From a virus, in the IMG/VR virus record IMGVR_UViG_3300048824_000144, positions 1 through 60,309 of that record: a DNA stretch of 60,309 nt; one strand, given 5' to 3'. Positions within the stretch are counted from its first letter, which is position 1. The number at the start of each line of letters is the position of its first letter. Shown one piece after another: positions 19,887 to 54,589 of the stretch. The translations under genes and the position numbers were made by a program. A model generated the notes under the pieces. The model was not told the origin of the DNA. It did no database searches and saw only the letters and a list, made by a program, of their open reading frames with translations.

Positions 19887-19968
19887 GCCCTTTTTTCGGA
19901 TTTCGTAACAAGACAATCTGGATGCTGTCGATCTCGCCGCCAGCCCGTCCCTAATCTTTTCAAGGGAA

Positions 19969-20106
19969 TTATATAGATGACTCGCTCCTTCGACGCTTTG
20001 CATACTGATCTCTCCGCTTCCGGCGCTTGGCCGCTTTGGTCTTGGGTTTCGGACGATACGAGAGAACTTTGTCCGCGATTCGATCTAGCTCTGGGGGAGT
20101 TTTCAT
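19969..20106 (-). CDS. small basic protein inside the IS (conserved in both IS copies)
   Basis: 45 aa MKTPPELDRIADKVLSYRPKPK...; ATGA overlap with the transposase stop; homologue at 43429-43551. Confidence 0.4.
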   Translation of the reverse strand: MKTPPELDRIADKVLSYRPKPKTKAAKRRKRRDQYAKRRRSESSI

Positions 20107-21029
20107 GCTGTCAGTTCCTTGTAGGTGAGATGCTTTCCGACTACCGCGACTACGAACGAATCCAGCCGCTCCAGAGTGTGACGGCTCACATTGCCGACGT
20201 TCAGGCGGAACGTAAACTCATCCACGTAGCGGTGCAGATGCTTCTTGGAAACCTGATGGTAAACGCCATACACTCCGCGCTTGAGTACGGCCCAAACGGA
20301 TTCAATGCTGTTCGTGCTAACGCCGTTCTCGGAGTAGATTCCAGCCGTGTGATTGATCGCTTCGTGCCGAAAGAACAGACCGTCAAGGCCGACGTATCCG
20401 GTCGCTTCGTCCGTAAAGATCGTGGAACCTACTTCGACGTTGGCATGGACAGCCGATTGCAGCGCGGCCATGTCGGTAGCCTCAATCGGCATCGCTACGG
20501 TGCGTCCGCCGCGCTCCCTGAGTCCTACGACAGCCGTCTTCCCGACGCTTCCACGTCCGGCCTTGAGTTTTTTGTGTTCGTGCTTGTTGCGCTCTTTTCC
20601 ACCGATGAAGCATTCGTCTACTTCGACGATGCCGCGCAACTTGTCAAGGTCATCGCCAGAGCCGCACGCCTCGCGGAGACGTTGGAGCATGAACCATGCC
20701 GACTTCTGGGTAACACCGATCTCTTTCCCCAATTGCAAGCTGGAGATGCCCTTGCGTGCGGTTACGAGCAGGTACATGGCATAGAGCCATTTGTGCAACG
20801 GAATATGGCTGCGCTCGAAGATCGTCCCTGTACGGATCGTGAAATCGAGAGAACAGGCATTGCAGCGATAGAAGCCAACCTTGGGTTGCTTGCCGATGCG
20901 CTCACGGTTCTTACATTCAGGGCAGAACGGACCATCGGGCCAAATCCGCGATTCGAGATAGAGCCGTGCCGACTCAGGGGTCGGGAACATCTCGAAAAGT
21001 TGAAAGGTGCTGATTGTAGATTTGCTCAT
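20103..21029 (-). CDS. IS1595-family (ISXO2-like) DDE transposase
   Basis: 308 aa; N-terminal zinc ribbon CPECK...CNAC, then HKWLYAMYLLVTARKGISSLQL and DECFIGG...TDE..GY typical of ISXO2-like transposases. Confidence 0.9.
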   Translation of the reverse strand: MSKSTISTFQLFEMFPTPESARLYLESRIWPDGPFCPECKNRERIGKQPKVGFYRCNACSLDFTIRTGTIFERSHIPLHKWLYAMYLLVTARKGISSLQLGKEIGVTQKSAWFMLQRLREACGSGDDLDKLRGIVEVDECFIGGKERNKHEHKKLKAGRGSVGKTAVVGLRERGGRTVAMPIEATDMAALQSAVHANVEVGSTIFTDEATGYVGLDGLFFRHEAINHTAGIYSENGVSTNSIESVWAVLKRGVYGVYHQVSKKHLHRYVDEFTFRLNVGNVSRHTLERLDSFVVAVVGKHLTYKELTA

Positions 21030-21032
21030 AAC

Positions 21033-21494
21033 TTAACTTCCCCACTGGTGTTCCGTAATGCTCACTTCCTCCGATTCCAGCATGGAAGCAATCTGTTCTG
21101 CATCTTCGCGTCGGCAAAACCGGATGGCCTTTGCAGAATCCGTTGTCCATTCAAAAGTCCAACTCGCTATCAGCCATTGCGGGGCGCCACCATACAAAGC
21201 AGGGCGTTTTTCTATCAACCAACCAGCTTCCACAGAGGAATGACCGCCTGATGAATGCAATGGTTCAGCATCGAAGATATGCCCTGACCCGCACCAGTAG
21301 ATCAAGCCATTACCATCAAGCAATTCTTCGCACCTTGGATGTGGGCAAAGTTTCGGAGTTAGGATTAGGGTCAGATCATCATCTTCCCGTCTCGCGGTCT
21401 CCGATTTGCATTGGGGGTGGCAGGTGATACCTCGATCCCTCTCGATTAACAATCCGCATCCGGTGCAGTGGATATACCCAGTTATCTCAGCCAT
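21033..21494 (-). CDS. zinc-ribbon cargo protein of IS copy 1
   Basis: 153 aa; CTGC...CHPQC...CPHPRC; stop 4 nt before the transposase ATG. Confidence 0.6.
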   Translation of the reverse strand: MAEITGYIHCTGCGLLIERDRGITCHPQCKSETARREDDDLTLILTPKLCPHPRCEELLDGNGLIYWCGSGHIFDAEPLHSSGGHSSVEAGWLIEKRPALYGGAPQWLIASWTFEWTTDSAKAIRFCRREDAEQIASMLESEEVSITEHQWGS

Positions 21495-21746
21495 TTCGTT
21501 CTCCTCAACTTCCTATATAGTAGATAACTCGCTGCATTTTGTCAAGAACTTTAGTCGTTTTGTTCTGAAAGGGTTAGCGACTCATGTATATAATTCCCCT
21601 TTTCAAGGAGTTCCCTTCTCGCCAAAGTGCCGATTCGTCGGCACCGTGCCGAAATCTCGGCAGAGGACGAGACGTGCCCGCCGCGCCTTTCCGGAAAATG
21701 GAACGTAAAATAACAAGCCTCCGGCTGGCTTCTAGGATCACCGAAT

Positions 21747-29950: not shown

Positions 29951-29952
29951 GC

Positions 29953-31689: not shown

Positions 31690-31738
31690 AAAGCGGGCGA
31701 GGCTGCTATATTCGGGGATTGGGTGAGGCTCCCCCACC

Positions 31739-32173
31739 TTGGAAAACGGCACCGACTGCCGCATCAGTGGATGGAAAGAGATCGCCGCCTTTCTCAATTG
31801 CTCGATCAGCACCGCGCAACGCTGGGAACGGCTGGAAGGTCTGCCCGTCCATCATCACGCTCACGCCGCCCGAGCCACCCCTTACCTGGTCCCGGTTGAA
31901 GTGAATTTCTGGCGCAGCGCCCGCGAGCTGCGAAACGGCAATGGGGAACGCGCGGATGCGGGCGTGCTCCGCCAGGCGGCGGCGCTGGCCGTGCACGTCG
32001 AGGTCCTGCGCGCCGCCCCCATCGAAGCCCTGGCCCTCTGGTGCCGCATGGCCCGCAAGCAGAGCTTCGAAATGTATCTGCGGCATCAGGCCCAGCAACA
32101 GCGCAGCCGGCGCGTGCTGGTCCATTCCCGCGGGCTGCTGGAACTCCTTCGGATACGCATTCCCAGGATGTGA
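31739..32173 (+). CDS. HTH protein candidate
   Basis: ISGWKEIAAFLNCSISTAQRWERLEGLPV HTH at the N-terminus; the C-terminal half is less convincing. Confidence 0.45.
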   Translation: MENGTDCRISGWKEIAAFLNCSISTAQRWERLEGLPVHHHAHAARATPYLVPVEVNFWRSARELRNGNGERADAGVLRQAAALAVHVEVLRAAPIEALALWCRMARKQSFEMYLRHQAQQQRSRRVLVHSRGLLELLRIRIPRM

Positions 32174-33735: not shown

Positions 33736-33741
33736 ATAAAC

Positions 33742-33781: not shown

Positions 33782-33863
33782 GCTTTGCGCGATGGGGACT
33801 TTCTAGCGTTCCCGGTTTTCCGCAAGATGGCTTGCGAGTCACCGGAACGCGCTTTGCGCGATG

Positions 33864-34853: not shown

Positions 34854-35377
34854 TGCGCCTTCACCGGAACGACCTTCGGAACCAGAAGGCTGCGCGCATA
34901 CTGCAGCGAGACGCAACTGCCGCGAGTGTCGCGGCCGTACCACTCCGGCCCCCGACGTTTCCGCCGCTTGCGATGGTACATGGCGCAGAATTTGTCTCCC
35001 AGCACCGCATGAAAGGTTTCCCAGATTTCCCGGAGCCGGCGGTCGGCCGGAGGTTCAACGATGTCATCGACGTGGCGCTGCCACTCCGCGTCGTAGCGAT
35101 CGGAGAGACGGGAATCCCGCATCGCCTCCCACGCTTCCAGGTCATCCAGCCACCGGCGTTCGTGGACCGCCATCTCCCAAAGCACCTGAAAGGGATCAAG
35201 TTCCGCATCGCAGTCGCGGCAGGAGACGATGCGCTTCTCCTCATTCACCGACACTCGGGGATGACGGCAGGACTGATAGCCGGCGCGCACCGTCCCCAGC
35301 AATGGCTCACGCTTCTTGCGCGTGAACTCAATCAGGTTCGACGACAAAGGATCGGGAGTCTCGTCTTTGACGATCAT
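34850..35377 (-). CDS. zinc-finger-like hypothetical protein
   Basis: 175 aa from ATG 35377 (ATGA overlap); SCRH...SCRDC. Confidence 0.65.
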   Translation of the reverse strand: MIVKDETPDPLSSNLIEFTRKKREPLLGTVRAGYQSCRHPRVSVNEEKRIVSCRDCDAELDPFQVLWEMAVHERRWLDDLEAWEAMRDSRLSDRYDAEWQRHVDDIVEPPADRRLREIWETFHAVLGDKFCAMYHRKRRKRRGPEWYGRDTRGSCVSLQYARSLLVPKVVPVKAQ

Positions 35378-35760
35378 CCCGTTAGCAGGATCAGGCCGCC
35401 TTCCCACGGAGCCGGATCCGGAACGTCGTAGAGAGCGATGAAGGCATGGAGCACGCCGGGAATATTCAGCGAGGGGTTCAGCACCCACAGGCCGGGCGCG
35501 ATGCGGTCGACGCCAAACTCCACCAGCTCGCCGGCCAGCATCTTCGGGCCCTCTCTTGAGATCGAGATTCGCAACGGCGCGGAGCGGCGTTCGAAGCGCA
35601 AGAGCAAGTCGCTGCCCTCGTCGCTGAAAATCAAATCAGGGTCGAAGAGCGGGCCGGAGCGCACATAGCGGAAGAAGGCGACACCGCACGTCGCGGCGGG
35701 ATCGCCCAGAATTTCGGTTGCCTTATCGCGCCAGGCCTGCAGCTCGGCAAGTGTCCTCAT
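35374..35760 (-). CDS. hypothetical protein
   Basis: 128 aa, balanced composition. Confidence 0.65.
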   Translation of the reverse strand: MRTLAELQAWRDKATEILGDPAATCGVAFFRYVRSGPLFDPDLIFSDEGSDLLLRFERRSAPLRISISREGPKMLAGELVEFGVDRIAPGLWVLNPSLNIPGVLHAFIALYDVPDPAPWEGGLILLTG

Positions 35761-36017
35761 GCTCCCACTCCGCCGAACGTGTGCCGCACCATTTCTGGCG
35801 CGGGCACGCCCTCGGGAACGAAGCGTCCGTCAGAGACGCGCCCCTTGATCTCGGCCAGCGGCACGGTCGGGGGAGAGAACGCCTTGCCCGAGAGTTCGCA
35901 GGACGTGTCGGGATGGATGAACACCATGCCCTCGTCGACGCGCCGCATCCGCAGAAGCGGTTCTCCGCAGGCCCCGCAATAGTATTGGCTCCGCGTGTAG
36001 AAATTGAATTCGCTCAT
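35757..36017 (-). CDS. zinc-ribbon-like protein
   Basis: 86 aa from ATG 36017 (MSEFNFYTRSQYYCGACG...). Confidence 0.6.
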   Translation of the reverse strand: MSEFNFYTRSQYYCGACGEPLLRMRRVDEGMVFIHPDTSCELSGKAFSPPTVPLAEIKGRVSDGRFVPEGVPAPEMVRHTFGGVGA

Positions 36018-38997: not shown

Positions 38998-39073
38998 TGG
39001 TAGGCCCAGAAGGATTCGAACCCTCAAAAGCTGCTCCTAAGGCAGCCGTGTTTGCCGATTACACCATGGGCCC
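38998..39073 (-). tRNA. tRNA-Leu(TAG) with only a 4-nt variable region (atypical)
   Basis: acceptor GGGCCCA/TGGGCCT, A73, CCA; anticodon arm GCTGC-CTTAGGA-GCAGC; T loop TTCGAAT; same acceptor as tRNA-Leu(CAA) at 39379. Confidence 0.65.
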
Positions 39074-39075
39074 AC

Positions 39076-39166
39076 TGGTGCACAGAGAAGGATTTGAACC
39101 TCCGCGTCCCACTCGGGGAAACCGGGTTACAGCCGGTCCGTTTCAGCCGGGCTCACGCATCTGTGC
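39076..39166 (-). tRNA. tRNA-Tyr(GTA)
   Basis: acceptor GCACAGA/TCTGTGC; ACCGG-CTGTAAC-CCGGT; long variable arm; GGAGG-TTCAAAT-CCTTC; CCA. Confidence 0.8.
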
Positions 39167-39170
39167 AAAA

Positions 39171-39260
39171 TGGCGGAGAAGGTGAGATTTGAACTCACGA
39201 CACCCGCAGGTGTGGCAGTTTTCGGGACTGCTGGCATAAGCCGGACTCGCCCACTTCTCC
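39171..39260 (-). tRNA. tRNA-Ser(CGA)
   Basis: GGAGAAG/CTTCTCC; GCAGT-CCCGAAA-ACTGC; long variable arm; T loop TTCAAAT; GCCA end. Confidence 0.75.
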
Positions 39261-39261
39261 G

Positions 39262-39349
39262 TGGCGGAGAGTGCGAGATTCGAACTCGCGGCGCCCTTGG
39301 GCGCTCGATCTTAGCAGGATCGCGGCATAAGCCACTCGCCCAACTCTCC
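39262..39349 (-). tRNA. tRNA-Ser(GCT)
   Basis: GGAGAGT/ACTCTCC; CGATC-CTGCTAA-GATCG; long variable arm; GCGAG-TTCGAAT-CTCGC; CCA. Confidence 0.8.
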
Positions 39350-39378
39350 GTTTGAATTGTCAAAGATCAAAGAAACTT

Positions 39379-39462
39379 TGGTAGGCCCAGAGAGATTTGA
39401 ACTCTCATGCCCGAAGGCGACCGCTCTTGAGGCGGCTGCGTCTGCCGTTCCGCCATGGGCCT
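39379..39462 (-). tRNA. tRNA-Leu(CAA)
   Basis: AGGCCCA/TGGGCCT; GCCGC-CTCAAGA-GCGGT; 13-nt variable arm; GAGAG-TTCAAAT-CTCTC; ACCA. Confidence 0.8.
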
Positions 39463-39545
39463 GAATTGTGTGGGGACTAATAACCCAGCAGGATGCTGAG
39501 TCGTAACGACAATCGGGATGAGTGTAGAGCGAACATCGAAGTTTT

Positions 39546-39622
39546 TGGTTGCGCGGGGTGGATTTGCACGCACCGTCTGGAGGTTATGAGCCTCCCGTAT
39601 TGTCCTACGCTACTACCGCGCC
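39546..39622 (-). tRNA. tRNA-Met(CAT), initiator-like 3' end, irregular D and T arms
   Basis: GGAGG-CTCATAA-CCTCC; ends ...CCGCGCAACCA as bacterial initiators do; the T stem pairs only as GGTG/CACC. Confidence 0.55.
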
Positions 39623-39627
39623 TCTCA

Positions 39628-39656
39628 AACCTAGCGGAAGCGCCCCGCGGTGTCAA
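39628..39656 (-). promoter_or_regulatory. candidate internal promoter TTGACA-N17-TAGGTT
   Basis: -35 at 39651-39656, -10 at 39628-39633; the predicted start coincides with the 5' end of tRNA-Met at 39622. Confidence 0.4.
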
Positions 39657-39741
39657 TCGCAAAAGCGGTCACGGGAGTGCGTGGCCCGAAGATCGCTCAT
39701 TTTCCGGTCAATCCGCAGGCGATTAGCGCATCGTCAAAAAA

Positions 39742-39824
39742 TGGTCGGGGTGAGAGGACTCGAACCTCTGGTGTTTGTGTACCTGCTCCCAAGGCAGGTG
39801 GCCTCGCCGCTAGCCGACACCCCG
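39742..39824 (-). tRNA. tRNA-Pro(TGG) with 12-nt variable region
   Basis: CGGGGTG/CACCCCG; CCTGC-CTTGGGA-GCAGG; AGAGG-TTCGAGT-CCTCT; ACCA. Confidence 0.65.
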
Positions 39825-39825
39825 A

Positions 39826-39901
39826 TGGTGAGAAGCCTCCGAGTCGAACGGAATCCTCTGGCTTTTCAGGCCAGCGCGCGCACCGGCTACGCCAGCTTCC
39901 C
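39826..39901 (-). tRNA. tRNA-Phe(GAA)
   Basis: GGGAAGC/GCTTCTC (one G-U); CTGGC-CTGAAAA-GCCAG; T loop TTCGACT; ACCA. Confidence 0.8.
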
Positions 39902-39968
39902 ACATTTTGGAGCCGGGTTACATCACGCGCGTTTCCCGGCAAGCTAGCGCGATAGCCCTTGCAAGATC

Positions 39969-40043
39969 TGGTGGACAAGGCGGCACTCGAAGCCGCGCCT
40001 GACGGGTGCAAACCGTCTATGCTCCCACTTACACCACTCGCCC
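39969..40043 (-). tRNA. tRNA-Ala(TGC)
   Basis: GGGCGAG/CTTGTCC with G3:U70; GACGG-TTTGCAC-CCGTC; GCGGC-TTCGAGT-GCCGC; ACCA. Confidence 0.8.
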
Positions 40044-40046
40044 ACT

Positions 40047-40121
40047 TGGGGTGACCCGAGGGAGTCGAACCCTCTAAAACGTGTTCCACAGACACGCCCC
40101 GCACCGTTTGGGTTGGGCCAC
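40047..40121 (-). tRNA. tRNA-His(GTG)
   Basis: GTGGCCC/GGGTCAC; CGTGT-CTGTGGA-ACACG; discriminator C; CCA; the base at -1 is A, not G. Confidence 0.7.
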
Positions 40122-40135
40122 TCAAAAACTAAACT

Positions 40136-40211
40136 TGGAGCCGGCGGCGTGGAGTTGAACCCGCAACCTGTCGAGTACAGATCGACCGCTCTGCCTTTGA
40201 GCTACACCGGC
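40136..40211 (-). tRNA. tRNA-Thr(TGT)
   Basis: GCCGGTG/CGCCGGC; GTCGA-TCTGTAC-TCGAC; T stem with a bulged A; TCCA end. Confidence 0.7.
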
Positions 40212-40224
40212 ACTTCTAAAAAAC

Positions 40225-40300
40225 TGGAGCCAGCGATCAGATTCGAACTGACTGCCTCTCCCTTACCAAGGGAGCGCACATCCTCATGTGCTTCACCGGC
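40225..40300 (-). tRNA. tRNA-Thr(GGT)
   Basis: GCCGGTG/CGCTGGC (two G-U); CTCCC-TTGGTAA-GGGAG; GTCAG-TTCGAAT-CTGAT. Confidence 0.8.
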
Positions 40301-40305
40301 AAACA

Positions 40306-40380
40306 TGGAGCCAGCGCGACGGATCGAACGCCGATCACCAGGGTACGAATCTGGCGCTCTGCCTGTTGAGCTACGCTGGC
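40306..40380 (-). tRNA. tRNA-Thr(CGT)
   Basis: GCCAGCG/CGCTGGC; CCAGA-TTCGTAC-CCTGG (one mismatch); CGGCG-TTCGATC-CGTCG. Confidence 0.7.
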
Positions 40381-40381
40381 C

Positions 40382-40455
40382 TGGAGGTCGGTGAGGGAGT
40401 TGAACCCCCGTCAGATGCTTTGCAGGCATCTACCTGGCCGCTCGGACAACCGACC
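40382..40455 (-). tRNA. tRNA-Cys(GCA)
   Basis: GGTCGGT/ACCGACC; GATGC-CTGCAAA-GCATC; GGGGG-TTCAACT-CCCTC. Confidence 0.8.
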
Positions 40456-40461
40456 GAAACC

Positions 40462-40536
40462 TGGTGCGGGGAACGGGACTCGAACCCGTGTCATCGCGTT
40501 GGCAACGCAATATCCTGGCCGCTAGACGATCCCAGC
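40462..40536 (-). tRNA. tRNA-Gly(GCC)
   Basis: GCTGGGA/TCCCCGC (one mismatch); TTGCG-TTGCCAA-CGCGA; ACGGG-TTCGAGT-CCCGT. Confidence 0.75.
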
Positions 40537-40544
40537 ACAAAATT

Positions 40545-40619
40545 TGGAGCGGACGGCGAGAGTTGAACTCGCGTCATTGGGTTGGAGGCCCAAGGCACCA
40601 GCCGCTATACCACGCCCGC
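40545..40619 (-). tRNA. tRNA-Gly(TCC)
   Basis: GCGGGCG/CGTCCGC; TTGGG-CCTCCAA-CCCAA; GCGAG-TTCAACT-CTCGC. Confidence 0.75.
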
Positions 40620-40734
40620 TCGCGCGCTCGCTTTGTAGGCGTCCTCGACGCCTCGTTCCCCGTCGCAGATCGGGAGACTGCTTTCCTGCTCCGGGCTTTC
40701 CCCGGTCGGCCCTGCGACTCCAGCGAACGCAAAA

Positions 40735-40811
40735 TGGCAGGCCGCGTGAGATTCGAACTCACTAGAACTAGTTTTGGAGACTAGCGCCCTTCCAGTCGGG
40801 TCATGCGGCCT
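40735..40811 (-). tRNA. tRNA-Trp(CCA)
   Basis: AGGCCGC/GCGGCCT; CTAGT-CTCCAAA-ACTAG; GTGAG-TTCGAAT-CTCAC; GCCA. Confidence 0.85.
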
Positions 40812-40812
40812 A

Positions 40813-40890
40813 TGGCGGGAATGACGAGACTCGAACTCGCTTTACTCCTCAGTGACAGTGAGGCGGCTCGGCCACTTTGCCCTCATCCCC
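40813..40890 (-). tRNA. tRNA-Asp(GTC)
   Basis: GGGGATG/CATTCCC; CCTCA-CTGTCAC-TGAGG; GCGAG-TTCGAGT-CTCGT; GCCA. Confidence 0.8.
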
Positions 40891-40911
40891 GTAAATCAAT
40901 TGTCAAAGAAC

Positions 40912-40986
40912 TGGCAACGGCTCAGAGATTCGAACTCTGCTCTCGGCGTCCAGAGCGCCGGGTCTTTCCCACTAAACGAAGCCGCA
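40912..40986 (-). tRNA. tRNA-Gln(CTG)
   Basis: TGCGGCT/AGCCGTT with unpaired 1:72; CGGCG-CTCTGGA-CGCCG; CAGAG-TTCGAAT-CTCTG; GCCA. Confidence 0.75.
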
Positions 40987-40993
40987 ACAAAAT

Positions 40994-41068
40994 TGGCAGC
41001 CGGTGAGAGAATTGAACTCCCGTAGCTGGATCCAAAGGCCAGCGCCTAAGCCACTCGGCCAACCGGCC
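40994..41068 (-). tRNA. tRNA-Gln(TTG)
   Basis: GGCCGGT/ACCGGCT; CTGGC-CTTTGGA-TCCAG (one mismatch); GGGAG-TTCAATT-CTCTC; GCCA. Confidence 0.7.
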
Positions 41069-41248
41069 TCAAATTTTCAAACTCACCGCCTTCACGCAGC
41101 GGCCGCACAGCACGAACTTGTCATCCGGCAGCATGCCGCGGGTCAGGTAATCGACCCTCGCATCCGAGATCAGCTTGCGATGATCCCCGCCACGCTCGCA
41201 TTCGAGAGCGTCGGTCAGCTTCACGGTTTCCCCGAATGCCTGCAACAT
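41069..41248 (-). CDS. possible 59-aa protein embedded in the tRNA array
   Basis: MLQAFGETVKLTDALECERGGDHRKLISDARVDYLTRGMLPDDKFVLCGRCVKAVSLKI; AGAGAGG upstream; its stop abuts the tRNA-Gln 5' end. Confidence 0.4.
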   Translation of the reverse strand: MLQAFGETVKLTDALECERGGDHRKLISDARVDYLTRGMLPDDKFVLCGRCVKAVSLKI

Positions 41249-41261
41249 CTCCGACCTCTCT

Positions 41262-41335
41262 TGGTAGGGCCACGGAGAATCGAACTCCGGTTCTCTGATC
41301 GAAAGTCAGTTTTCCTGCCACTAGAAGATGACCCC
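41262..41335 (-). tRNA. tRNA-Glu(TTC)
   Basis: GGGGTCA/TGGCCCT (G-U pairs); ACTGA-CTTTCGA-TCAGA; CGGAG-TTCGATT-CTCCG; ACCA. Confidence 0.75.
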
Positions 41336-41341
41336 ACAAAC

Positions 41342-41415
41342 TGGTAGCGCATCCGAGAATCGAACTCGGGTTCCCTGTTAGAGAGACAGGCTGCCTGCCA
41401 CTAGCAGAATGCGCC
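41342..41415 (-). tRNA. tRNA-Glu(CTC)
   Basis: GGCGCAT/ATGCGCT; CCTGT-CTCTCTA-ACAGG; CCGAG-TTCGATT-CTCGG; ACCA. Confidence 0.75.
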
Positions 41416-41417
41416 GC

Positions 41418-41448
41418 AAAAAACTTAAGCCCCTCGTTGGAGGGGCTT
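41418..41448 (-). terminator. rho-independent terminator
   Basis: the minus strand reads AAGCCCCTC-CAAC-GAGGGGCTT followed by AAGTTTTTT. Confidence 0.65.
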
Positions 41449-41566
41449 CGATGGCGTTGGTGCTCTCGAAATCCCCTCACATAAACGTGCCTTCCCCCTG
41501 CCACGCGGCTGGCGTAGTGGGTGTCGGCTGGTGGCCGAAGCAATCGCTATGTTGGAAGAGATTCAC
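41418..41566 (-). ncRNA. candidate ~150-nt small RNA inside the tRNA array
   Basis: bounded by promoter TTGACG-N17-TACTCT (41573-41601) and the terminator at 41418-41448; no plausible ORF. Confidence 0.35.
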
Positions 41567-41572
41567 AGATCG

Positions 41573-41601
41573 AGAGTACCGTCCCGCAGGCAGCGCGTCA
41601 A
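41573..41601 (-). promoter_or_regulatory. candidate sigma-70-type promoter TTGACG-N17-TACTCT
   Basis: -35 at 41596-41601, -10 at 41573-41578, spacing counted as 17. Confidence 0.45.
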
Positions 41602-41741
41602 GAACGAAAGGCCATGATCGAAAAGCAACATGTAAACATGTAAACATGCTCACACGGTTGCGAATGATCCTTCGCCAAAGAACGGCTCAGGATTTCGCGT
41701 CCGGGCTCCCGCTTCGCTCACGCCCGGAGAACCGCTCAAAA

Positions 41742-41817
41742 TGGCAGGCAGCCAGAGAATCGAACTCTGATCCCGGCTTTCGGAAAACCGTGTGCTCATC
41801 CGTTGCACCAGCCGCCC
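41742..41817 (-). tRNA. tRNA-Arg(CCG)
   Basis: GGGCGGC/GCTGCCT (G-U pairs); CGGTT-TTCCGAA-AGCCG; CAGAG-TTCGATT-CTCTG; GCCA. Confidence 0.8.
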
Positions 41818-41820
41818 GCA

Positions 41821-41896
41821 TGGTGCCCGCGCTGAGATTCGAACTCAGGTCTGTCGCTTAGGAGGCGACCGCTCTCTCCAGTTGAACTACGCGGGC
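41821..41896 (-). tRNA. tRNA-Arg(CCT)
   Basis: GCCCGCG/CGCGGGC; GTCGC-CTCCTAA-GCGAC; CTGAG-TTCGAAT-CTCAG; ACCA. Confidence 0.85.
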
Positions 41897-41909
41897 TGCA
41901 AACAAAAAA

Positions 41910-41985
41910 TGGCAGGAGCGGCAGGAATCGAACCCGCATTCCACGGTCCGTAGCCGTGTGCCCTGATCCGTTGGACGACGCTCCC
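41910..41985 (-). tRNA. tRNA-Arg(ACG)
   Basis: GGGAGCG/CGCTCCT; CACGG-CTACGGA-CCGTG; GCGGG-TTCGATT-CCTGC; GCCA. Confidence 0.8.
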
Positions 41986-41989
41986 ACTT

Positions 41990-42064
41990 TGGTAGAGCCT
42001 GGATGACTCGAACACCCATTTCAGGCTTAGAAGGCCTGATCCTATCCCGTTGAATGAAGGCTCC
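41990..42064 (-). tRNA. tRNA-Arg(TCT)
   Basis: GGAGCCT/AGGCTCT; CAGGC-CTTCTAA-GCCTG; GGGTG-TTCGAGT-CATCC; ACCA. Confidence 0.8.
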
Positions 42065-43020: not shown

Positions 43021-43076
43021 GTTCGCCACCCCAAAATGATGGGACTTATATACTTAACTCCCTAAACACAATGAAA

Positions 43077-43517
43077 TCAGCCATCAACATCGGCCAACAG
43101 TTCCGGCGTAACTTTCGCTATGGCGTAGGCGTCGGTCAGGTCGCACACTCCGCCTTCGCAGTGCCATCGGTCATCAAGGCTCAAATAATTCAGCAGCCGA
43201 GCGGCTTCGGGTGTGGTCATCGTTACGGCACTCCAGCACCAATTACCGACCCATTCGTGCTTTCCGCTAAGAACCTCAAAGCGTCGGCGCGACAGACACA
43301 GGAAGTTACCACTGAACGAGTACCGAGGCTCCGATCCTCTCTCGCCCCACTGGAGATCAATCTCGTCTCCGATCTGCACAGCAGATACGCGTCCAGTGTC
43401 GATTCCGTGTTCGTCATTCGTCGCCAGACTAACTATTACGTTCACGTTTTGCCTTCTTTCGCTTTCGGGGTTTCTTGCGCTTCGACTTCGGACGGTAAGC
43501 CAGTACCACATCCGCAA
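43077..43517 (-). CDS. cargo protein of IS copy 2 (start uncertain)
   Basis: C-terminal 110 aa look coding (IDLQWGERGSEPRYSFSGNFLCL...WHCEGGVCDLTDAYAIAK); the N-terminus overlaps the small basic ORF. Confidence 0.45.
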   Translation of the reverse strand: MRMWYWLTVRSRSARNPESERRQNVNVIVSLATNDEHGIDTGRVSAVQIGDEIDLQWGERGSEPRYSFSGNFLCLSRRRFEVLSGKHEWVGNWCWSAVTMTTPEAARLLNYLSLDDRWHCEGGVCDLTDAYAIAKVTPELLADVDG

Positions 43518-43551
43518 TCGCGTCTAGGACGGGGGGAGTTTTGCGCTTCAT
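43429..43551 (-). CDS. small basic protein (homologue of 19969-20106)
   Basis: MKRKTPPVLDAIADVVLAYRPKSKRKKPRKRKKAKRERNS shares KTPP.LD.IAD.VL.YRPK with IS copy 1. Confidence 0.4.
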   Translation of the reverse strand: MKRKTPPVLDAIADVVLAYRPKSKRKKPRKRKKAKRERNS

Positions 43552-43645
43552 GAGATTCCCTTTTTACACTTCGCACAGACAGCGAGAATGTACAGTGTGG
43601 CTGTCCGCAACCGTCCACCACATATCCGGCAGAACGATGCCTTCT

Positions 43646-44563
43646 TCATGCGGTCAACCCTTCATAGGTCAGCCGCTTGCCGACTACGGCCAGAACAAAG
43701 CTATCCAGCCGCTCAAGAGTGTGGTACTTCACGTTGCCGACGTTCAGCCGGAAGGTGAACTCGTCAACGTACTTGGCAAGATGCTTCTTGCTTATTTGGT
43801 GATAGACGCCGTACACGCCGCGTTTCAGGACTGCCCAAACGCTCTCGATTCCGTTCGTGCTCGCCTGACCCAGCCGGTACTCGCCCGCCATGTGATTGAC
43901 GCTCTGGTGACGGAAGAAAAGACCATCAAGGCCGATGTATCCGGGTGCCTCATCCGTGAAGATCGTAGAGCCGACTTCCACATTGGCGTGGATGGCGGAT
44001 TGCAAACTGACTTGGTCGGTAGCTTCCAGCGGCATTGCAATAGTGCGTCCGCCGCGCTCCCTGAGTCCTACAACGGCAGTCTTGCCCACGGAGCCACGCC
44101 CAGCCTTGAGCTTTTTGTGCTCGTGCTTGTTGCGCTCTTTCCCGCCGATAAAACATTCGTCAATTTCGACCATGCCGCGAAGTTTGTCCAGCTTCCCGCC
44201 GCACGCCTCCCGAAGCCGATGCAGAACGAACCACGCCGACTTCTGCGTAATGCCGATTTCCTTGGCAAGCTGCATCGAACTGATGCCTTTTCGCGCTGTG
44301 ACGAGCAGGTACATGGCATAGAGCCACTTGTGCAGAGGAATGTGGCTGCGCTCGAAGATCGTGCCTGTACGGATGGTGAAATCCAATTGGCAGGCATTGC
44401 AGCGATAGAAGCCGCCCTTGCGAGTTGTGATGCGTTCAGTGGCTTTGCAGGTCGGGCAAGTGACGCCGTTTTCCCAGAGACGGGATTCCAGATAGAGCCG
44501 TGCGGACTCCGCGTCGGGAAACATCTCGAAAAGCTGGAATGTGCTGATCGTGCTCTTACTCAT
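43646..44563 (-). CDS. IS1595-family (ISXO2-like) DDE transposase
   Basis: 305 aa from ATG 44563 (MSKSTISTFQLFEMFP...), collinear and highly similar to 20103-21029. Confidence 0.9.
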   Translation of the reverse strand: MSKSTISTFQLFEMFPDAESARLYLESRLWENGVTCPTCKATERITTRKGGFYRCNACQLDFTIRTGTIFERSHIPLHKWLYAMYLLVTARKGISSMQLAKEIGITQKSAWFVLHRLREACGGKLDKLRGMVEIDECFIGGKERNKHEHKKLKAGRGSVGKTAVVGLRERGGRTIAMPLEATDQVSLQSAIHANVEVGSTIFTDEAPGYIGLDGLFFRHQSVNHMAGEYRLGQASTNGIESVWAVLKRGVYGVYHQISKKHLAKYVDEFTFRLNVGNVKYHTLERLDSFVLAVVGKRLTYEGLTA

Positions 44564-44567
44564 TGCG

Positions 44568-44738
44568 TTACCCCTCGCATCCCATCTGGTAATAGCCGCC
44601 ACAGTCCTGGGAGCAGAAATCTATCGTTTGCGTGCGAACCTCTTGCTTTTGGCGAGCGGGATTCCATGCTCGGTCGATTATCTTTCGCGGTACAGGTGTC
44701 TCGATTGGCTTCCCGCAGTAAGGGCATTTGGCTGTCAT
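44568..44738 (-). CDS. zinc-ribbon cargo protein
   Basis: 56 aa MTAKCPYCGKPIETP...CSQDCGGYYQMGCEG; stop 5 nt before the transposase ATG. Confidence 0.45.
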   Translation of the reverse strand: MTAKCPYCGKPIETPVPRKIIDRAWNPARQKQEVRTQTIDFCSQDCGGYYQMGCEG

Positions 44739-44795
44739 TTTGTCAAAACCTCCGTCAAAACTTTACAAAACGGCGTAAACATTCAAGAGCGGATT

Positions 44796-45062
44796 TCACA
44801 CTTCTGGTGGAATTGGCAATCGCCGGTGCTCAACTACGGCAAGTTCCCCAGCGTGGAGTCTGCCATAGCAAGAGCAATCCTTACTTGGCGGGTGGTTGCA
44901 GCATAGATAGCGCCCATCCGCCCCAATCCACGCCTGATGCGTGTAGTCGTAATGTTCCGACCTTAGTGTCCGCTCCGCCGCATCCGTGGTTAGCCTTGCG
45001 TATCGAATGGTGCTCACAGTTGACCTCCGATCAAGATAGGGTGTTTCACAAGTACTACGCAA
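44796..45062 (-). CDS. possible cargo protein
   Basis: 88 aa ORF in a low-G+C segment; overlaps the next ORF by 49 nt. Confidence 0.3.
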   Translation of the reverse strand: MRSTCETPYLDRRSTVSTIRYARLTTDAAERTLRSEHYDYTHQAWIGADGRYLCCNHPPSKDCSCYGRLHAGELAVVEHRRLPIPPEV

Positions 45063-45202
45063 AACATGCGCTCGAAAGCGTTGCGAGGAGCTAATGTTCG
45101 CTTATTCAGGTAAGAGATCACGTTCGCGAGCTTCAGTGACCCCACATAATTGCCTTCTGCCTCGCACTCTCTCAGCAACTCTAAACAAATACTGTAGGCC
45201 AT
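45014..45202 (-). CDS. possible cargo protein
   Basis: 62 aa; MAYSICLELLRECEAEGNYVGSLKLANVISYLNK looks coding. Confidence 0.35.
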   Translation of the reverse strand: MAYSICLELLRECEAEGNYVGSLKLANVISYLNKRTLAPRNAFERMFCVVLVKHPILIGGQL

Positions 45203-45221
45203 TTGTAAGGGAACTATATAC

Positions 45222-45933
45222 TTAACTCCCTAACTGCCGAGTTTCAACATTGCACACAGCTTCCGCATAATCGACAATACAGCTCGCCAGCTCAGGAGGA
45301 ATGGTTGCCGCTACGCCACTACAGTTAGCGCGACCGCCGGCCAATCTCTCGCTCTCTTGCTGCCACCGATTACGCCAGTCCTGCACACTGATGTCCTGCG
45401 GACGCTTCTCCATCCATGCGCCAGGAGCTCCACGAAAGCCCTTGCCTTTAATAATCCCTTGCGGCATGAGCGGCGGTACTCCGCTGCCCCACAGGTAGAA
45501 CGGGCCGCAATGATGGACTGCATTGCCCACAAACTGCTGCGCCGCTCTGACGTTCTCCATGACGAAGGGAATGCCGGATGCCATGCACAATTCACGGGTG
45601 TGATTGAAGAGCCTAATACCTTGCGTTGGGTAAGGGGGGCTTGGGTGAAAGCACTTCATGCCGTGTACAGAAAACTCTTCACAGGGAGAGGAGGCACAGA
45701 TGAAATCGAACTGTTCCGACCAGTGGCAAGCAAACCGATCTTGGAGCATTACATAACCGTTTCCCGATGCTGCAAAATTAAGCACGTCCTCTTTCAGGAA
45801 GTACAATCCCTGCGGAACCTCTGGGGGGTTCAACTAAGTCAACCGCAACGACATTCCAGCCTCGCGACAAAAATGGTTTCGACCATCCGAGTCGCCCGCA
45901 AAAGAGATCAAGCATCCGTTTCATGTTTGGCAT
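45222..45933 (-). pseudogene. C5 cytosine DNA methyltransferase split by a frameshift at a C6 run
   Basis: motif I DLFCGRLGWS in frame A (45933-45778); motif IV SSPCEEFS and motif VI FVMENV in frame B (45833-45222); frames meet at GGGGGG 45823-45828. Confidence 0.7.
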
Positions 45934-45959
45934 CCTAGCACCCCAGAAAAGGGAGTTAA

Positions 45960-46100
45960 CTATATAATTCCCAAAATGATGATCACAACGACAACCAGTT
46001 CGCAGACCGCGCCCGGGCGCGGATGGTTGGAGACGATCAGCACGCAGCCGGCTAGCGCCAAAAGCGCGACCAGCTTTTCCTGAGTGATGGTGATGGTCAT
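45960..46100 (-). CDS. small membrane protein whose last codons were replaced by the IS insertion
   Basis: MTITITQEKLVALLALAGCVLIV...; GGAGG RBS; removing the IS restores ...ILGWRT-TGA overlapping the ATG at 43020. Confidence 0.45.
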   Translation of the reverse strand: MTITITQEKLVALLALAGCVLIVSNHPRPGAVCELVVVVIIILGII

Positions 46101-48468: not shown

Positions 48469-48621
48469 TTAACTTTTCCTCCATCGCGGCCGCAGCTCCT
48501 CAACTTCGCGCTGCCACAGGCCGAGAGCCGGCGATCCCGGAAAGAGCTGGCATCCCCGGCCGAAAACCAGTCCCGCCCAAACGTAGCGCGGCCACGCGAT
48601 GATGTACCTGAGCAGTCTCAT
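48469..48621 (-). CDS. possible 50-aa hydrophobic protein
   Basis: ATG 48621 overlaps the RtcB stop (ATGA). Confidence 0.4.
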   Translation of the reverse strand: MRLLRYIIAWPRYVWAGLVFGRGCQLFPGSPALGLWQREVEELRPRWRKS

Positions 48622-49892
48622 GCCGGCGCGCTCTCGACTTTCTTCCGGCCTATTTTTTCGTCGCCGCCCTTGACGCACACGAACTGCTTGAGCCGGTACA
48701 CCGGTTCCACCAGGTCGGACTGCGCCGCCATCACCGCTTCAATGTCTTTGTAGGCGCCCGGAGTCTCATCGAGCACGCTGGCATCTTTCAGGCACTCGAC
48801 GCCTTCCGTCGCCTTGATGTGATCGGCCAGGCTGAATTGCCGCACCGCTTCTTTGCGCCCCATGGCGCGCCCGGCGCCGTGCGAACAGGTCTGGAAAGAA
48901 TCCGTGTTCCCGAGGCCGCGCACGATGTAGGTCCGCGCGCCCATGCTGCCGGGGATGATGCCCAGATCTCCCAGCCGCGCCCGAACCGCTCCCTTGCGCG
49001 TGACCAGAACGTTTTCGCCGAAGTGACTTTCCCACACGACGTAATTGTGATGACAGTGGACGCGGAACTCTTCGCCGACGGCCCCCAGCAACGGAGAAAG
49101 GGCGGCTACGATATTTTCCATCATGATCTCGCGGTTGCGCCAGGCGAAGCGCTGCGCGAATGAGACGGCGTGCAGGTAGTCGTCGAATGCCGCCTCGCCC
49201 CGCGGTAGAAAGGCCAGGTCGGGATCGGGCAACTCGATAAACCAGCGCTTGCACAAGTCTTTTGCGACGTCGGTAAAATAGCCGCCAATCTTGTTGCCCA
49301 GCCCGCGCGAGCCGGAGTGCAGCACGATCCACACGCGCTCTTGCTCGTCGGCGCAGATTTCGATGAAGTGATTTCCCGTGCCCAGCGTCCCGAGTTGCGA
49401 GAGCGTGTTCTTGGCCTGTGCTCCCGGATGCTTCGCAATGATGCTTCCGTACTCGGCGGAGAATTCTGAGTTCCAGGCTTCGGCGATCGCCGCCGGAGCC
49501 ACGCTCTCCGGAGTTCGCGCCCAGCCGCCAACGTCTCCCACGGCGCCGTTATTCGTACGGCCGTGAGGGACCGCCTTCTCGATCGCCGCGCGCACTTCGG
49601 CCAGATCTGCAATTTGTTCGCGCCGGAATTGCGTGCGAACCGCCATCATTCCGCAGCCGATATCCACGCCCACCGCCGCCGGCACAACCGCATTGCGCGT
49701 GGGCAGCACCGTGCCCACGGTCGATCCCATGCCCCAATGAGTGTCGGGCATGGCCGCCATCCACTTGTAGATGAAGGGCAGCCGCGCCGTGTTCTTGAGC
49801 TGGTCGATGGCCTTGTCCTCGAAGCGCACGCCTTTGCGCCACGCTTTGATGATGCGGCCTTCGCCGGCGTCGATGATCTCGAAATTGCTCAT
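48618..49892 (-). CDS. rtcB: RtcB RNA ligase (3'-phosphate/5'-hydroxyl)
   Basis: 424 aa from ATG 49892; GVDIGCGM, GTLGTGNHFIE, HSGSRGLGN, HCHHNY, GSMGA, SCHGAGR motifs. Confidence 0.9.
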   Translation of the reverse strand: MSNFEIIDAGEGRIIKAWRKGVRFEDKAIDQLKNTARLPFIYKWMAAMPDTHWGMGSTVGTVLPTRNAVVPAAVGVDIGCGMMAVRTQFRREQIADLAEVRAAIEKAVPHGRTNNGAVGDVGGWARTPESVAPAAIAEAWNSEFSAEYGSIIAKHPGAQAKNTLSQLGTLGTGNHFIEICADEQERVWIVLHSGSRGLGNKIGGYFTDVAKDLCKRWFIELPDPDLAFLPRGEAAFDDYLHAVSFAQRFAWRNREIMMENIVAALSPLLGAVGEEFRVHCHHNYVVWESHFGENVLVTRKGAVRARLGDLGIIPGSMGARTYIVRGLGNTDSFQTCSHGAGRAMGRKEAVRQFSLADHIKATEGVECLKDASVLDETPGAYKDIEAVMAAQSDLVEPVYRLKQFVCVKGGDEKIGRKKVESAPA

Positions 49893-50266
49893 GCCTGATT
49901 CGCCTGCCACGGGTACTGCTGAAAATCTTCGCCGAGCAGCTCCGCCGCGGCCTCGCACAGCGCCACGCCCGCAAGCTGATTGGTTTCCGGATACCAGGTG
50001 CCGTCCCGGCCCCATTCCAGATAGGTGATGCCGGCGAGCCGGCGATAACTCCATCCGTCGTCACAGCGCAGTTGCCGGACGCGCTCCGCTCGCTCCCGCG
50101 TCATGCGCGGTTTGATCTCCGCGTAGAACTCGGCGTGCCTCGTGCCGGCAGCTTCGGCCAACTCCAAAAGTTCATCGACGCCCACGGCGTGGCCGCCGTC
50201 GCGGAACAGCGCATCGCGCTCCGCCGAGGAGATCTTCGAGTCGCCCATGTACAGCATGTTTTTCAT
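49889..50266 (-). CDS. hypothetical protein
   Basis: 125 aa; coupled to rtcB. Confidence 0.65.
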   Translation of the reverse strand: MKNMLYMGDSKISSAERDALFRDGGHAVGVDELLELAEAAGTRHAEFYAEIKPRMTRERAERVRQLRCDDGWSYRRLAGITYLEWGRDGTWYPETNQLAGVALCEAAAELLGEDFQQYPWQANQA

Positions 50267-52487: not shown

Positions 52488-52585
52488 GTGCATCGGATTC
52501 TCAATCAGATGCCCCCGCCAAACCCACCCCTAAGTGATTGAATGCACAGCCCCGGCAACCGGCCTCTGGCGGTTCTATGGCTGTT
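52488..52585 (-). repeat. leader repeat B (paralogue of 9437-9534)
   Basis: see 9437-9534; exact 24-mer at 52562-52585. Confidence 0.8.
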
Positions 52586-53209: not shown

Positions 53210-54589
53210 CTACGAACCTGGGGTCAGCGGCAACCTCGCCTGCCGCTCCAGCAGAGCTTCCTGGCGCCGGGCGGCCGCGGCTTTGTCGTGCAGGGACGCC
53301 GCTTTCCGGATGTCGCGTTCGTCCACGATGTTGTAGCGTTCGAAGACGGCGGCGGTCTTGTGGCCGCTGATCATCATCGCCGTTTTTTGCATCACCCCGT
53401 CCCGCACCATGTTCCGCACCCCGCTCCGGCGCAGGTCATGGAAGAGCAGCCGCGCACACCCTGCTGCCGCGGTCGCCTTGGCCCACGCCCTGCGGAAATC
53501 CTTGACGGGGCGGCCGTTTGTTCGGGTAAAGAGACTGTCCTCCGGCGCTTTGCCCGCGATCGCGCCGCCCAGCAGTTCATAGACGGTCTTGGTCATCGCC
53601 ACGACGCGCGCGTCGTCGTTTTTGGTCTCGCCGGCATAGAGGACGATGGTGCGCTCCGCCATATCCACCTGGGCCACTCGCAGGCCCAGCAGCTCCCCAC
53701 TTCTCCAGCCGTAGGTGTAGCCCATCTCGAACAGCGTGCGCAGGTAGGGGCCGATGGCCGCCGTGGCGCGGACCAGCGCCGGATACTGCTCGTCCTGCAC
53801 AAACCCCTGGCGGACGTTGCGCTCCTTGAGCATCGAGAAGTAGGGCTGTTCGCCCATCTTCAGACGTCCGGTTTTGATGGCCAGCTTGTAGCAGCGTTTC
53901 AGGGCCGCGAGTTCCCGGTTCACGGTCGCGTTGCAGGCTTTTTCCTCCAGACGCCGGGCCACATACGCGTCGATCTGTTCCGCCGAAACGCTCGCGGCCG
54001 GCAGCGCCCCAAAGCTCGCTTCCAGATGCTTGCGCCAGCGGATTTTCAGGTCGTCGAGGCTCTTGCGCTGGTTGATCACATAGTCGCGTTCGAGCGACTC
54101 GTAAAGATCGCGAACGCAAAGCTGGGCTCCGGTTCGCCCGGCACCGCCGTCCCCGGCCTGGGCGCGGCGCTTTTCCTTTTCCAGATCGATCTCCCGCATC
54201 TTCCGGCGCAACACTTCCTGCGCTTCCTTCGGCTTTACGCAGCCCGTCGTCTGGCGCACGCGCCTGCCGTCGCGGTAGTACTGCATCCCCAGAAAGCGTG
54301 AGTCTTTCTGGGGATACAGACTGCCGGAGCCGCGCATGTGGGATTTGCGAGTGGGCATAGAGGGATGGGGCGGGGTGAGACGGAAAGGTTCTTTTTCTTC
54401 AAAACGGCTGGGAGAGGACGGGACTAGCCGGGCTATGGACGAGGCCGCTTCTACGAGGCGTCTGATCTTCTGCGCGTGGGCCGGATAAAGATCCGCCAGC
54501 CAACCTAGATCATCGGAAGGCTGAGGCTTGGGTCCGGGAACGCTCGCCTGCGGAACAACGAACAGCTTGGCAGCCGCAGAGCCGGTCAC
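53210..54589 (-). CDS. int: tyrosine recombinase / phage integrase (Int2)
   Basis: LLFHDLRRSG and GHKTAAVFERYNI catalytic motifs; GTG 54589 overlaps the upstream stop; alternative start at ATG 54358. Confidence 0.85.
   Translation of the reverse strand: MTGSAAAKLFVVPQASVPGPKPQPSDDLGWLADLYPAHAQKIRRLVEAASSIARLVPSSPSRFEEKEPFRLTPPHPSMPTRKSHMRGSGSLYPQKDSRFLGMQYYRDGRRVRQTTGCVKPKEAQEVLRRKMREIDLEKEKRRAQAGDGGAGRTGAQLCVRDLYESLERDYVINQRKSLDDLKIRWRKHLEASFGALPAASVSAEQIDAYVARRLEEKACNATVNRELAALKRCYKLAIKTGRLKMGEQPYFSMLKERNVRQGFVQDEQYPALVRATAAIGPYLRTLFEMGYTYGWRSGELLGLRVAQVDMAERTIVLYAGETKNDDARVVAMTKTVYELLGGAIAGKAPEDSLFTRTNGRPVKDFRRAWAKATAAAGCARLLFHDLRRSGVRNMVRDGVMQKTAMMISGHKTAAVFERYNIVDERDIRKAASLHDKAAAARRQEALLERQARLPLTPGS

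Follow-up and report, generated by a model that had tools for sequence, protein, structure and literature searches.

Transporter insertion sequences (tISs) have the structure of an insertion sequence (IS), with one transposase gene, inverted repeats (IRs) and a direct repeat (DR), together with passengers unrelated to transposition, and TnCentral restricts them to the IS1595 and IS66 families (10.1101/2021.05.26.445724). The passage of PMC3129680 that cites Siguier et al. (2009) likewise has the tIS with passenger genes defined on the IS1595 family, and examples of passenger-carrying ISs are listed in PMC11891212. The IS1595 family itself is characterized by an 8-bp duplication, a zinc finger and a DDE domain, the N-terminal zinc finger or zinc ribbon occurring in every group but IS1016 (PMC8101967). 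Here we describe a tIS of this family at positions 43041-45972 of a 60,309-nt stretch of viral DNA (IMG/VR record IMGVR_UViG_3300048824_000144; the whole stretch is called the window below). A methyltransferase pseudogene, the open reading frames (ORFs) ORF56 and ORF123 and three small ORFs lie within its IRs and have moved with the whole unit. Phage genomes are generally held to contain few IS elements, and we know of no biochemical study of the IS1595-family mechanism. Taken as a whole, it is very probable that 43041-45972 is one active IS1595-family tIS in a temperate phage, with the movement, cargo and history set out below.

Boundaries and mobility of the element

The element spans 2,932 bp, has 22-bp inverted ends and is flanked on both sides by the 8-bp duplication AAAATGAT, so that the 2.9-kb IS1595-type element proposed in an earlier note on this DNA, with its outer inverted ends and duplication, is confirmed from the sequence. 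That note called it a composite, a word that misleads in the classical sense of two ISs flanking cargo, since there is a single transposase gene here. The features are as follows (L numbers are our handles for fetched loci).

43033..43040, no strand: left copy of the target-site duplication (TSD) AAAATGAT, single copy in the empty-site alleles L172 and L175
43041..43062, plus strand: right inverted repeat (IRR), the transposase-distal end in transposase orientation, GGGACTTATATACTTAACTCCC
43077..43448, minus strand: cargo ORF123, of a phage early-region family, motifs WYGNWCW and DDRWHCEGGWCDL, 26 homologs
43429..43551, minus strand: small basic protein, 40 aa, MKRKTPPVLDAIADVVLAYRPKSKRKKPRKRKKAKRERNS, second core gene of the IS clade, detected with a hidden Markov model (HMM)
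43548..43649, minus strand: ORF33, a zinc-ribbon-like peptide with a CxxC...CxxC pattern, inserted relative to IS copy 1 (see below)
43646..44563, minus strand: IS1595-family transposase, 305 aa, N-terminal zinc ribbon and DDE domain (Pfam, NCBIfam)
44568..44738, minus strand: cargo ORF56, a YdaE-like zinc-ribbon protein of a phage family (NCBIfam, PHROG)
44796..45062, minus strand: cargo ORF88, no assigned function, 49-nt overlap with ORF62
45014..45202, minus strand: cargo ORF62, no assigned function, first gene after the internal end copy
45209..45230, plus strand: internal third end copy, IRR type, GGGAACTATATACTTAACTCCC, found as an end-pattern match
45209..45972, no strand: 764-bp segment resembling a mobile insertion cassette (MIC), with a left inverted repeat (IRL), an IRR-type end and only the methyltransferase pseudogene inside
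45222..45933, minus strand: C5-cytosine DNA methyltransferase (MTase)-like gene, frameshifted by a 1-nt insertion at the C6 run 45824-45829
45951..45972, minus strand: IRL, the promoter-proximal end in transposase orientation, GGGAATTATATAGTTAACTCCC
45973..45980, no strand: right copy of the TSD AAAATGAT

The outer ends agree with each other at 18 of their first 20 positions, and the first 20 nt of the IRL are identical to the IRLs of two relatives (L001 and L003). All genes of the element are on the minus strand, and its G+C content is 0.47-0.59 as against about 0.61-0.67 in the flanks. When the whole element was compared with GenBank phages by blastn, no match was found.

The 305-aa transposase matched Pfam PF12762 (DDE_Tnp_IS1595) with an E value of 1.4e-41 over profile positions 1-153 of 153, PF12760 (Zn_ribbon_IS1595) at residues 17-59 with 32.6 bits against a cut-off of 25.4, and NCBIfam NF033547 ("IS1595 family transposase") with an E value of 8.9e-58 and 195.7 bits against a cut-off of 75. 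Both transposases of the window, this one and that of IS copy 1, matched DDE_Tnp_IS1595 (E values of 1e-41 and 1e-42), Zn_ribbon_IS1595 and NF033547. A transposase search gave E values of 1e-20 or lower for 7,988 of the 8,000 candidates that were scored, a number to which the count of homologs is limited. DDE domain, zinc ribbon, 8-bp duplication and short terminal IRs are thus all present, as in the IS1595 family. The ISNwi1 subgroup of the ISfinder table ("ISNwi1+") comprises passenger-carrying elements of 1,750-4,750 bp with an 8-bp DR and ends ggnnatTAT. The ends of the element, GGGAATTAT, fit this GGnnATTAT pattern, and it presumably belongs to that subgroup.

We could follow the element in sister contigs of the same phage from other samples, which were found by exact-protein look-ups. 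In L166 (JGI 3300048813, a contig of 117,946 bp), flanks 100% identical to window positions 26194-32027 and 32020-35838 enclose a copy of the element that is identical at 2,932 of 2,932 positions and has the duplication CATCGAAG on both sides. The corresponding target in the window is the following.

32020..32027, no strand: CATCGAAG, single-copy and empty in the window, target of the L166 insertion, which interrupts ORF 31739-32173 (plus strand)

The site at 43033, in turn, is empty in L172 (on the same contig as L166) and in L175, both of which have a single AAAATGAT within the sequence ...ATCATCATTTTGGGGTGGCGAACATGAAG, encoding MTITITQEKLVALLALAGCVLIVSNHPRPGAVCELVVVVIIILGWRT. These empty sites hold an intact 47-aa ORF that ends in ...IIILGWRT and whose TGA overlaps the next ATG (ATGA), in exact agreement with the earlier prediction that removal of the element would restore a small membrane-protein gene with its TGA over the ATG at 43020. 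Filled alleles of the 43033 site occur in the window and in L173, L174, L176 and L178, and filled junctions are present in the independent assemblies L167, L168, L173, L174, L176 and L178. Both known insertion sites hold the entire 2,932 bp, identical in sequence, and at both of them a small phage gene is interrupted and the element is co-oriented with it. Because an identical relocated copy as well as empty and filled alleles are found in other assemblies, the element is real, mobile as one 2.9-kb unit, recently active and polymorphic in nature. It has, in other words, been caught moving within a natural phage population, where each insertion disables a small phage gene.

We give next to no credence to the view that the end motifs belong to the normal regulatory sites of phages, or that the structure is an assembly chimera. 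A degenerate end pattern occurs at only four sites of the window (three within 43041-45972, plus the left end of IS copy 1 at 19964), with 0 matches expected from 100 shuffles; in unrelated genomes the same ends delimit 116 elements, each with an exact 8-bp duplication; and the independent assemblies show empty and filled alleles and a second insertion site. On these three grounds we regard that view as refuted, and the widespread occurrence of the motifs as regulatory sites, which the earlier note had named as the observation that would count against the element, was not found, the motif being confined in the window to IS ends.

Core genes, cargo and relatives

The earlier note had pointed to a small basic ORF (KTPP.LD.IAD.VL.YRPK) kept in both elements of the window, and this conservation turned out to be clade-wide. 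An HMM built from copies found by regular expression detected the small basic protein in 97 of 105 distinct elements, 96 times on the transposase strand. The ORF usually has an ATGA overlap with the transposase stop and its 3' end within the IRR. In about a dozen elements cargo parts it from the transposase or from the end, and even there the motif (P-x-x-L-D-x-I-x-D-x-V-L-x-Y-R-P-K, followed by a Lys/Arg tail) is kept. Codon-position variability is highest at position 3 (0.65 vs 0.44 and 0.36 at the other two). Judging from its conservation in 97 of 105 elements, the retention of the motif at varying positions and the variability of third positions, the small basic ORF is a protein-coding core gene. 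It showed no relatives in Pfam, NCBIfam, PHROGs or the PDB. The protein is presumably a DNA- or transposase-binding accessory factor, and it offers a concrete candidate for a transposition cofactor.

The remaining ORFs of the element are passengers, and the count of "five or six cargo ORFs" given earlier is roughly right (MTase pseudogene, ORF62, ORF88, ORF56, ORF33 and ORF123), except that the small basic ORF is core and not cargo. There is indeed a cargo ORF at 43077-43517, first read as 146 aa, but its true extent is about 123 aa from a GTG start at 43448. The homologs of this ORF123 are 120-142 aa long and belong to replication/recombination regions of phages, where none of the called genes encodes an IS1595 transposase. 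An AlphaFold2 model of ORF123, with a predicted local distance difference test (pLDDT) score of 88.8, had a single match in BFVD, an uncharacterised Caudovirales protein (template-modelling score 0.72), and none in the PDB; structure searches had been proposed for this ORF and for ORF 21033-21494, and the latter had no PDB match either. ORF33 sits between the transposase gene and the small basic ORF, with ATGA overlaps at the transposase stop and at the start of the small basic ORF, and had no homolog in the fetched loci other than copies of this element. ORF56 matched NCBIfam YdaE at 1.2e-4, under the curated cut-off, and phrog_1520 at 2e-6; a 62% identical homolog is a resident gene in L001, outside the IS. 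Similarly, ORF88 has a 36% homolog outside the IS in L027, while ORF62 had no homolog in the fetched loci. Running PADLOC on the cargo gave nothing meaningful. Since four of the passengers (MTase, ORF123, ORF56 and ORF88) have homologs that are resident genes in phage-like DNA, the five or six passengers were apparently drawn from the phage accessory-gene pool.

In the case of the methyltransferase, the earlier reading as a C5 MTase gene holds for motifs I, IV and VI (DLFCG, SPCEEFS and MENV are visible) and fails for the gene as a whole, as a 1-nt insertion puts motif I in one frame and motifs IV and VI in another and the scores fall under the Pfam and TIGR cut-offs. Deleting one C from the C6 run 45824-45829 gives a 233-aa MTase ORF, and an intact homolog (L179, 68% identical) reads EPPEIP across the frameshift site. 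The Pfam DNA_methylase match, which covers the C-terminal part, has an E value of 0.0027 and 17.6 bits against a cut-off of 22, and TIGR00675 scores 18 against a cut-off of 100; the PHROG matches, phrog_363 and phrog_757, are DNA methyltransferase families. The sequence thus has neither the above-cut-off model score nor the unbroken ORF of an intact C5 MTase. Most of its 1,194 homologs are about 210-260 aa long. The close ones occur as normal constituents of phage replication modules, and none of the genes called next to them encodes an IS1595 transposase. We considered a sequencing error as the cause of the frameshift and rejected it, because the identical frameshift is found in four assemblies from different samples (window, L166, L167 and L168); for the same reason we take the frameshift to be genuine. 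The gene is best described as a C5-MTase-like pseudogene, with phase variation or +1 recoding as conceivable alternatives.

The window contains a second, related element.

19964..21598, minus strand: IS copy 1, 1,635 bp, with cargo ORF153, a 308-aa transposase and the small basic ORF; 23-bp IR, duplication CTTTTCAA

Its transposase shares about 82% protein identity with that of 43041-45972. As had been noticed earlier for the transposases, the two elements are collinear, and this extends to the downstream small basic ORF; elsewhere they differ. A 99.9% identical copy lies at L184 127-1761, in an unrelated context beside a 420-aa C5 methylase, and its flanks, CAAAGTAA and AAAAAGAA, form an imperfect duplication. 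In ORF153 only a C-terminal domain of 65 aa folds confidently; this domain is widespread (322 library representatives) and had no match in the PDB. A candidate "degenerate internal end" in IS copy 1 (about 21512-21535) was discarded, as it corresponds in an alignment of six relatives to a conserved TTGACA-17-TACTAT promoter, the additional likeness being specific to this copy.

To delimit further members of the clade, a script required an exact 8-bp duplication and at least 14 of 20 IR matches. It returned the 116 elements mentioned above, of which 105 are distinct; nearly all begin with GGGAATTATATA. Confirmed matches numbered 163 in IMG/VR and 162 in GTDB genomes, the latter mostly Terriglobia/Acidobacteriota metagenome-assembled genomes (MAGs), along with Alphaproteobacteria, Nitrospirota and others. 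The distinct elements measure 1,275-4,516 bp, and extra DNA is present in all 105, none being as short as transposase plus small ORF (about 1.1 kb): the extra DNA upstream of the transposase exceeds 100 bp in 69 of them, that downstream exceeds 200 bp in 58, and both hold for 22. Carrying cargo is therefore the rule in this clade. The expectations that IS1595 elements normally hold a transposase only, and that cargo-carrying relatives are unusual in phage-like genomes, do not stand in view of the tISs in the literature, of the extra DNA in 105 of 105 elements and of the 163 IMG/VR matches.

The cargo of the clade is very diverse: its 235 ORFs form 198 clusters, of which 182 have a single member. 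No Pfam match was obtained for most of the 103 cargo proteins that reach 90 aa. Those annotated include C5 methylase (7), N6_Mtase (3), N6_N4 (2) and D12 (1), so that at least 13 of the 103 are DNA methyltransferases; other matches were to Eco57I/MmeI-type, Mom, PAPS_reduct and Vsr proteins. Judged by domain matches, the annotatable cargo consists mostly of DNA-modification enzymes, DNA methyltransferases above all. Six near-identical elements (L007, L008, L009, L011, L087 and, at window positions 21495-21598, IS copy 1) have the same 82-nt leader up to the TTGACA-17-TACTAT promoter and the same transposase, and carry six unrelated cargo segments between the -10 box and the transposase ATG, which marks a sharply bounded cargo slot. 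Abundant, always cargo-bearing and with such diverse cargo, the clade may be a significant and little-noticed route of exchange for epigenetic and anti-restriction genes between phages and soil bacteria.

The target duplications of the delimited elements are 83% A+T, against 43% in the flanks. As a separate observation, one 8-mer, read as CTTGAGGG or as its complement CCCTCAAG, borders each of three insertions (L151 1930-3800, L151 3933-6392 and L144 3933-6109); two of these insertions belong to this clade and lie in different MAGs, and the third, in L151, has a transposase only 35% identical. This 8-mer, unusually GC-rich for the clade, may be a shared specific target.

The third end copy and the history of the element

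The earlier note had also described a third end at 45209-45230, in the orientation of the left end, bounding a 764-bp segment with only the MTase gene, and this arrangement is borne out. The internal end agrees with the IRR at 23 of 25 positions and with the IRL at 19 of 25, and its first 20 nt are identical to the IRRs of two relatives (L086 and L019). It also includes the TAA stop of the MTase. Internal copies of full length are uncommon: of the 105 elements, L103 alone shares this feature with the element described here. In L103, positions 3487-5298 form a four-ended composite, in which an 8-nt spacer separates a complete IS from a 221-bp cassette that has a pair of ends itself. Because a single 8-bp duplication, TTTCAAAG, bounds the whole, this composite was moved by its outer ends, and it offers an analogy to the multi-ended, likewise outer-end-moved element of the window.

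In our proposal, the DDE transposase would recognize the two outer 22-bp inverted ends, and the whole 2,932 bp would be inserted into an AT-rich 8-bp target that is duplicated upon insertion, with the small basic protein perhaps assisting. As to the origin of the third end, a cassette consisting of IRL, MTase and a second IRR (IRR') may have landed in the 5' leader of a transposase-bearing tIS, nested or adjacent, at the AT-rich target TTACAAAT, which is now found after the internal end. The transposase would then have paired the IRL of the cassette with the distal IRR, giving the present fused unit and leaving the old IRL behind. We infer this two-step order of events, as well as any residual activity of the internal end, from the arrangement of the ends, and put it forward as a hypothesis because neither a solo cassette, nor a cassette-free ancestor, nor a duplication around the 764 bp was found.

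Several points weigh against the proposal as a whole. The two flanks of the 764-bp segment, ATTTGTAA and AAAATGAT, differ, so that it lacks a separate target duplication. A solo copy of the cassette, which the earlier note had expected might be found elsewhere, was absent from viral_contigs (0 matches), from metagenome_contigs (the known composite contig only) and from the fetched loci, in junction searches that required exact matches and hence had limited power; a scan of the fetched loci for elements of 60-1,300 bp with TSD and IRs found none lacking a transposase. A search with the ORF62 start region did not retrieve a cassette-free ancestor. A promoter scan gave no convincing sigma-70 promoter within the element, and only 6 nt lie between the internal end and the first gene downstream of it, a place occupied in relatives by the promoter, so that this end is possibly regulatory too, or instead. 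Finally, the relocation may have been by excision and reinsertion or by the arrival of a fresh copy from a host-borne donor.

The regulatory possibility can be made specific: the internal copy would be a leader control site (a transposase operator, a -10 region or the 3' arm of an IRL hairpin that blocks read-through translation), with the MTase inserted in the loop. A fold-back hairpin that inhibits read-through translation has been described for IS10. Besides its position just ahead of the ORF62 start codon, the internal copy contains a TATAGT hexamer, and relatives have an inner-IR-like motif, GGGAGT(T/C)A.GTA.A.T, in a TTGAC-N17 promoter just upstream of the first gene; in L002, 15 of the 22 positions of the motif copy agree with the internal end. 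In the minimum-free-energy structure predicted for 45190-45972, the IRL pairs with the internal copy, and short leaders of relatives fold likewise, with z-scores of -0.7 to -2.7. These z-scores are weak, however, and the leader of IS copy 1 shows no such fold (z = +0.65). The leader likeness in relatives is partial (up to 14 of 20 positions, with a peak of 14-15 of 20), appears in direct orientation about as often as in inverted, and may reflect merely an AT-rich promoter, whereas the internal copy lacks nothing of an end, the terminal GGGA included, and matches the functional IRR of relatives over its first 20 nt. We consider a leader control site rather unlikely, and a general leader inverted repeat was dropped as a feature, and kept only within this alternative, owing to the limited, orientation-neutral likeness and the weak RNA folds. 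Still more improbable, in our judgement, is that 45209-45972 is a MIC mobilized in trans that still moves alone, the 2.9-kb unit being two elements that are neighbours for a time. MICs as a class are well established (IS231-MIC231, in the part of PMC3129680 that cites them), and the segment does have the structure of one, a complete pair of IRL and IRR-type ends 764 bp apart with a single gene in between. Yet neither an own duplication nor a solo copy came to light, as said above, and the element was found only as the full unit at its two insertion sites, and 45209-45972 is at most a putative independently mobile unit.

Beyond the fused-unit history that we favour, a broader scheme can be sketched for the clade, which we hold tentatively and with more doubt than belief. 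The clade, with its GGGAATTATATA ends, transposase and obligatory small basic partner, would be a dedicated shuttle for phage accessory genes, chiefly orphan DNA-modification (anti-restriction) genes, between temperate phages and Acidobacteriota or other soil hosts. Cargo would be gained by end capture, a cassette or element landing beside or inside another and the transposase then using the distal ends. The three-ended element of the window and the four-ended L103 would be caught intermediates, and the promoter-like leader repeats of the relatives decayed internal ends.

The rest of the window, and comparison with known systems

The window is a 60,182-bp genome, circular or circularly assembled, with a 127-bp terminal overlap (positions 1-127 equal 60183-60309 at 100%). 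With a tail fibre and tail proteins, two integrases, a helicase, an HNH protein, RtcB and 24 tRNA genes, it looks like a temperate phage genome. The phage probably lives on soil or peat bacteria, with a host among the Acidobacteriota.

The 24-tRNA array (38998-42064, minus strand) and the RtcB tRNA-splicing ligase (48618-50054, minus strand; phrog_1075, 1e-134) suggest a module for tRNA supply and repair in a temperate phage. A 98-bp direct repeat, 83% identical between its copies at 9437-9534 and 52488-52585, starts with a sequence resembling a tRNA 3' end; the second copy adjoins the integrase gene at 53210-54589, and the second integrase gene is at 17496-18863. Possible explanations are that these repeats act as att-type sites or that the genome is a mosaic in which two integration modules have come together. 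Two copies of a 64-bp repeat with ATCGTAGCTTATTCGTAGCTTATGT (17313-17376 and 17578-17641) lie close to where the integrase ORF 17496-18863 has its 3' end, the first just outside the ORF and the second inside, and may represent arm-type binding sites of the integrase. Three tandem 23-bp repeats, GAGCCGTGCGACAAAATCAGCCG, occupy 23041-23113; they are iteron-like and lie upstream of ORF 23337-24536 (phrog_6028, function unknown).

Compared with IS1595-family tISs, the element is alike in its single DDE transposase with N-terminal zinc ribbon, its 8-bp duplication, its short IRs beginning with GGGAATTAT, its internal passengers and its size of 2.9 kb. It differs in residing and moving in a phage genome and in having a third, internal end. 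The family has been summarised as having "a single transposase gene" (PMC8101967), to which the element adds the conserved small basic ORF; we found no description of such an ORF.

The 764-bp segment recalls MIC231 (IS231 group) and miniature inverted-repeat transposable elements in consisting of two IS ends and one passenger with no transposase. Unlike them it has no duplication around it and no solo copies of it were found, and it is fused to, and travels with, the transposase part. Compound transposons such as Tn10 and Tn5 also have more than two IS ends, of which the outer ones are used, but the element of the window has one transposase gene, three ends instead of four, no complete flanking IS pair and an internal end without a facing partner. 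A DNA methyltransferase as IS passenger is known from IS220 of the IS1380 family (PMC11891212). The transposase there belongs to another family, whereas the MTase of the window is frameshifted, belongs to a short phage-type family and scores under the Pfam C5-methylase cut-off.

All in all, the element is no new kind of element and joins an already known class, the IS1595-family tISs. Less ordinary are its activity within a phage population, its three ends, its conserved second gene and the bias of the annotatable cargo towards DNA modification.

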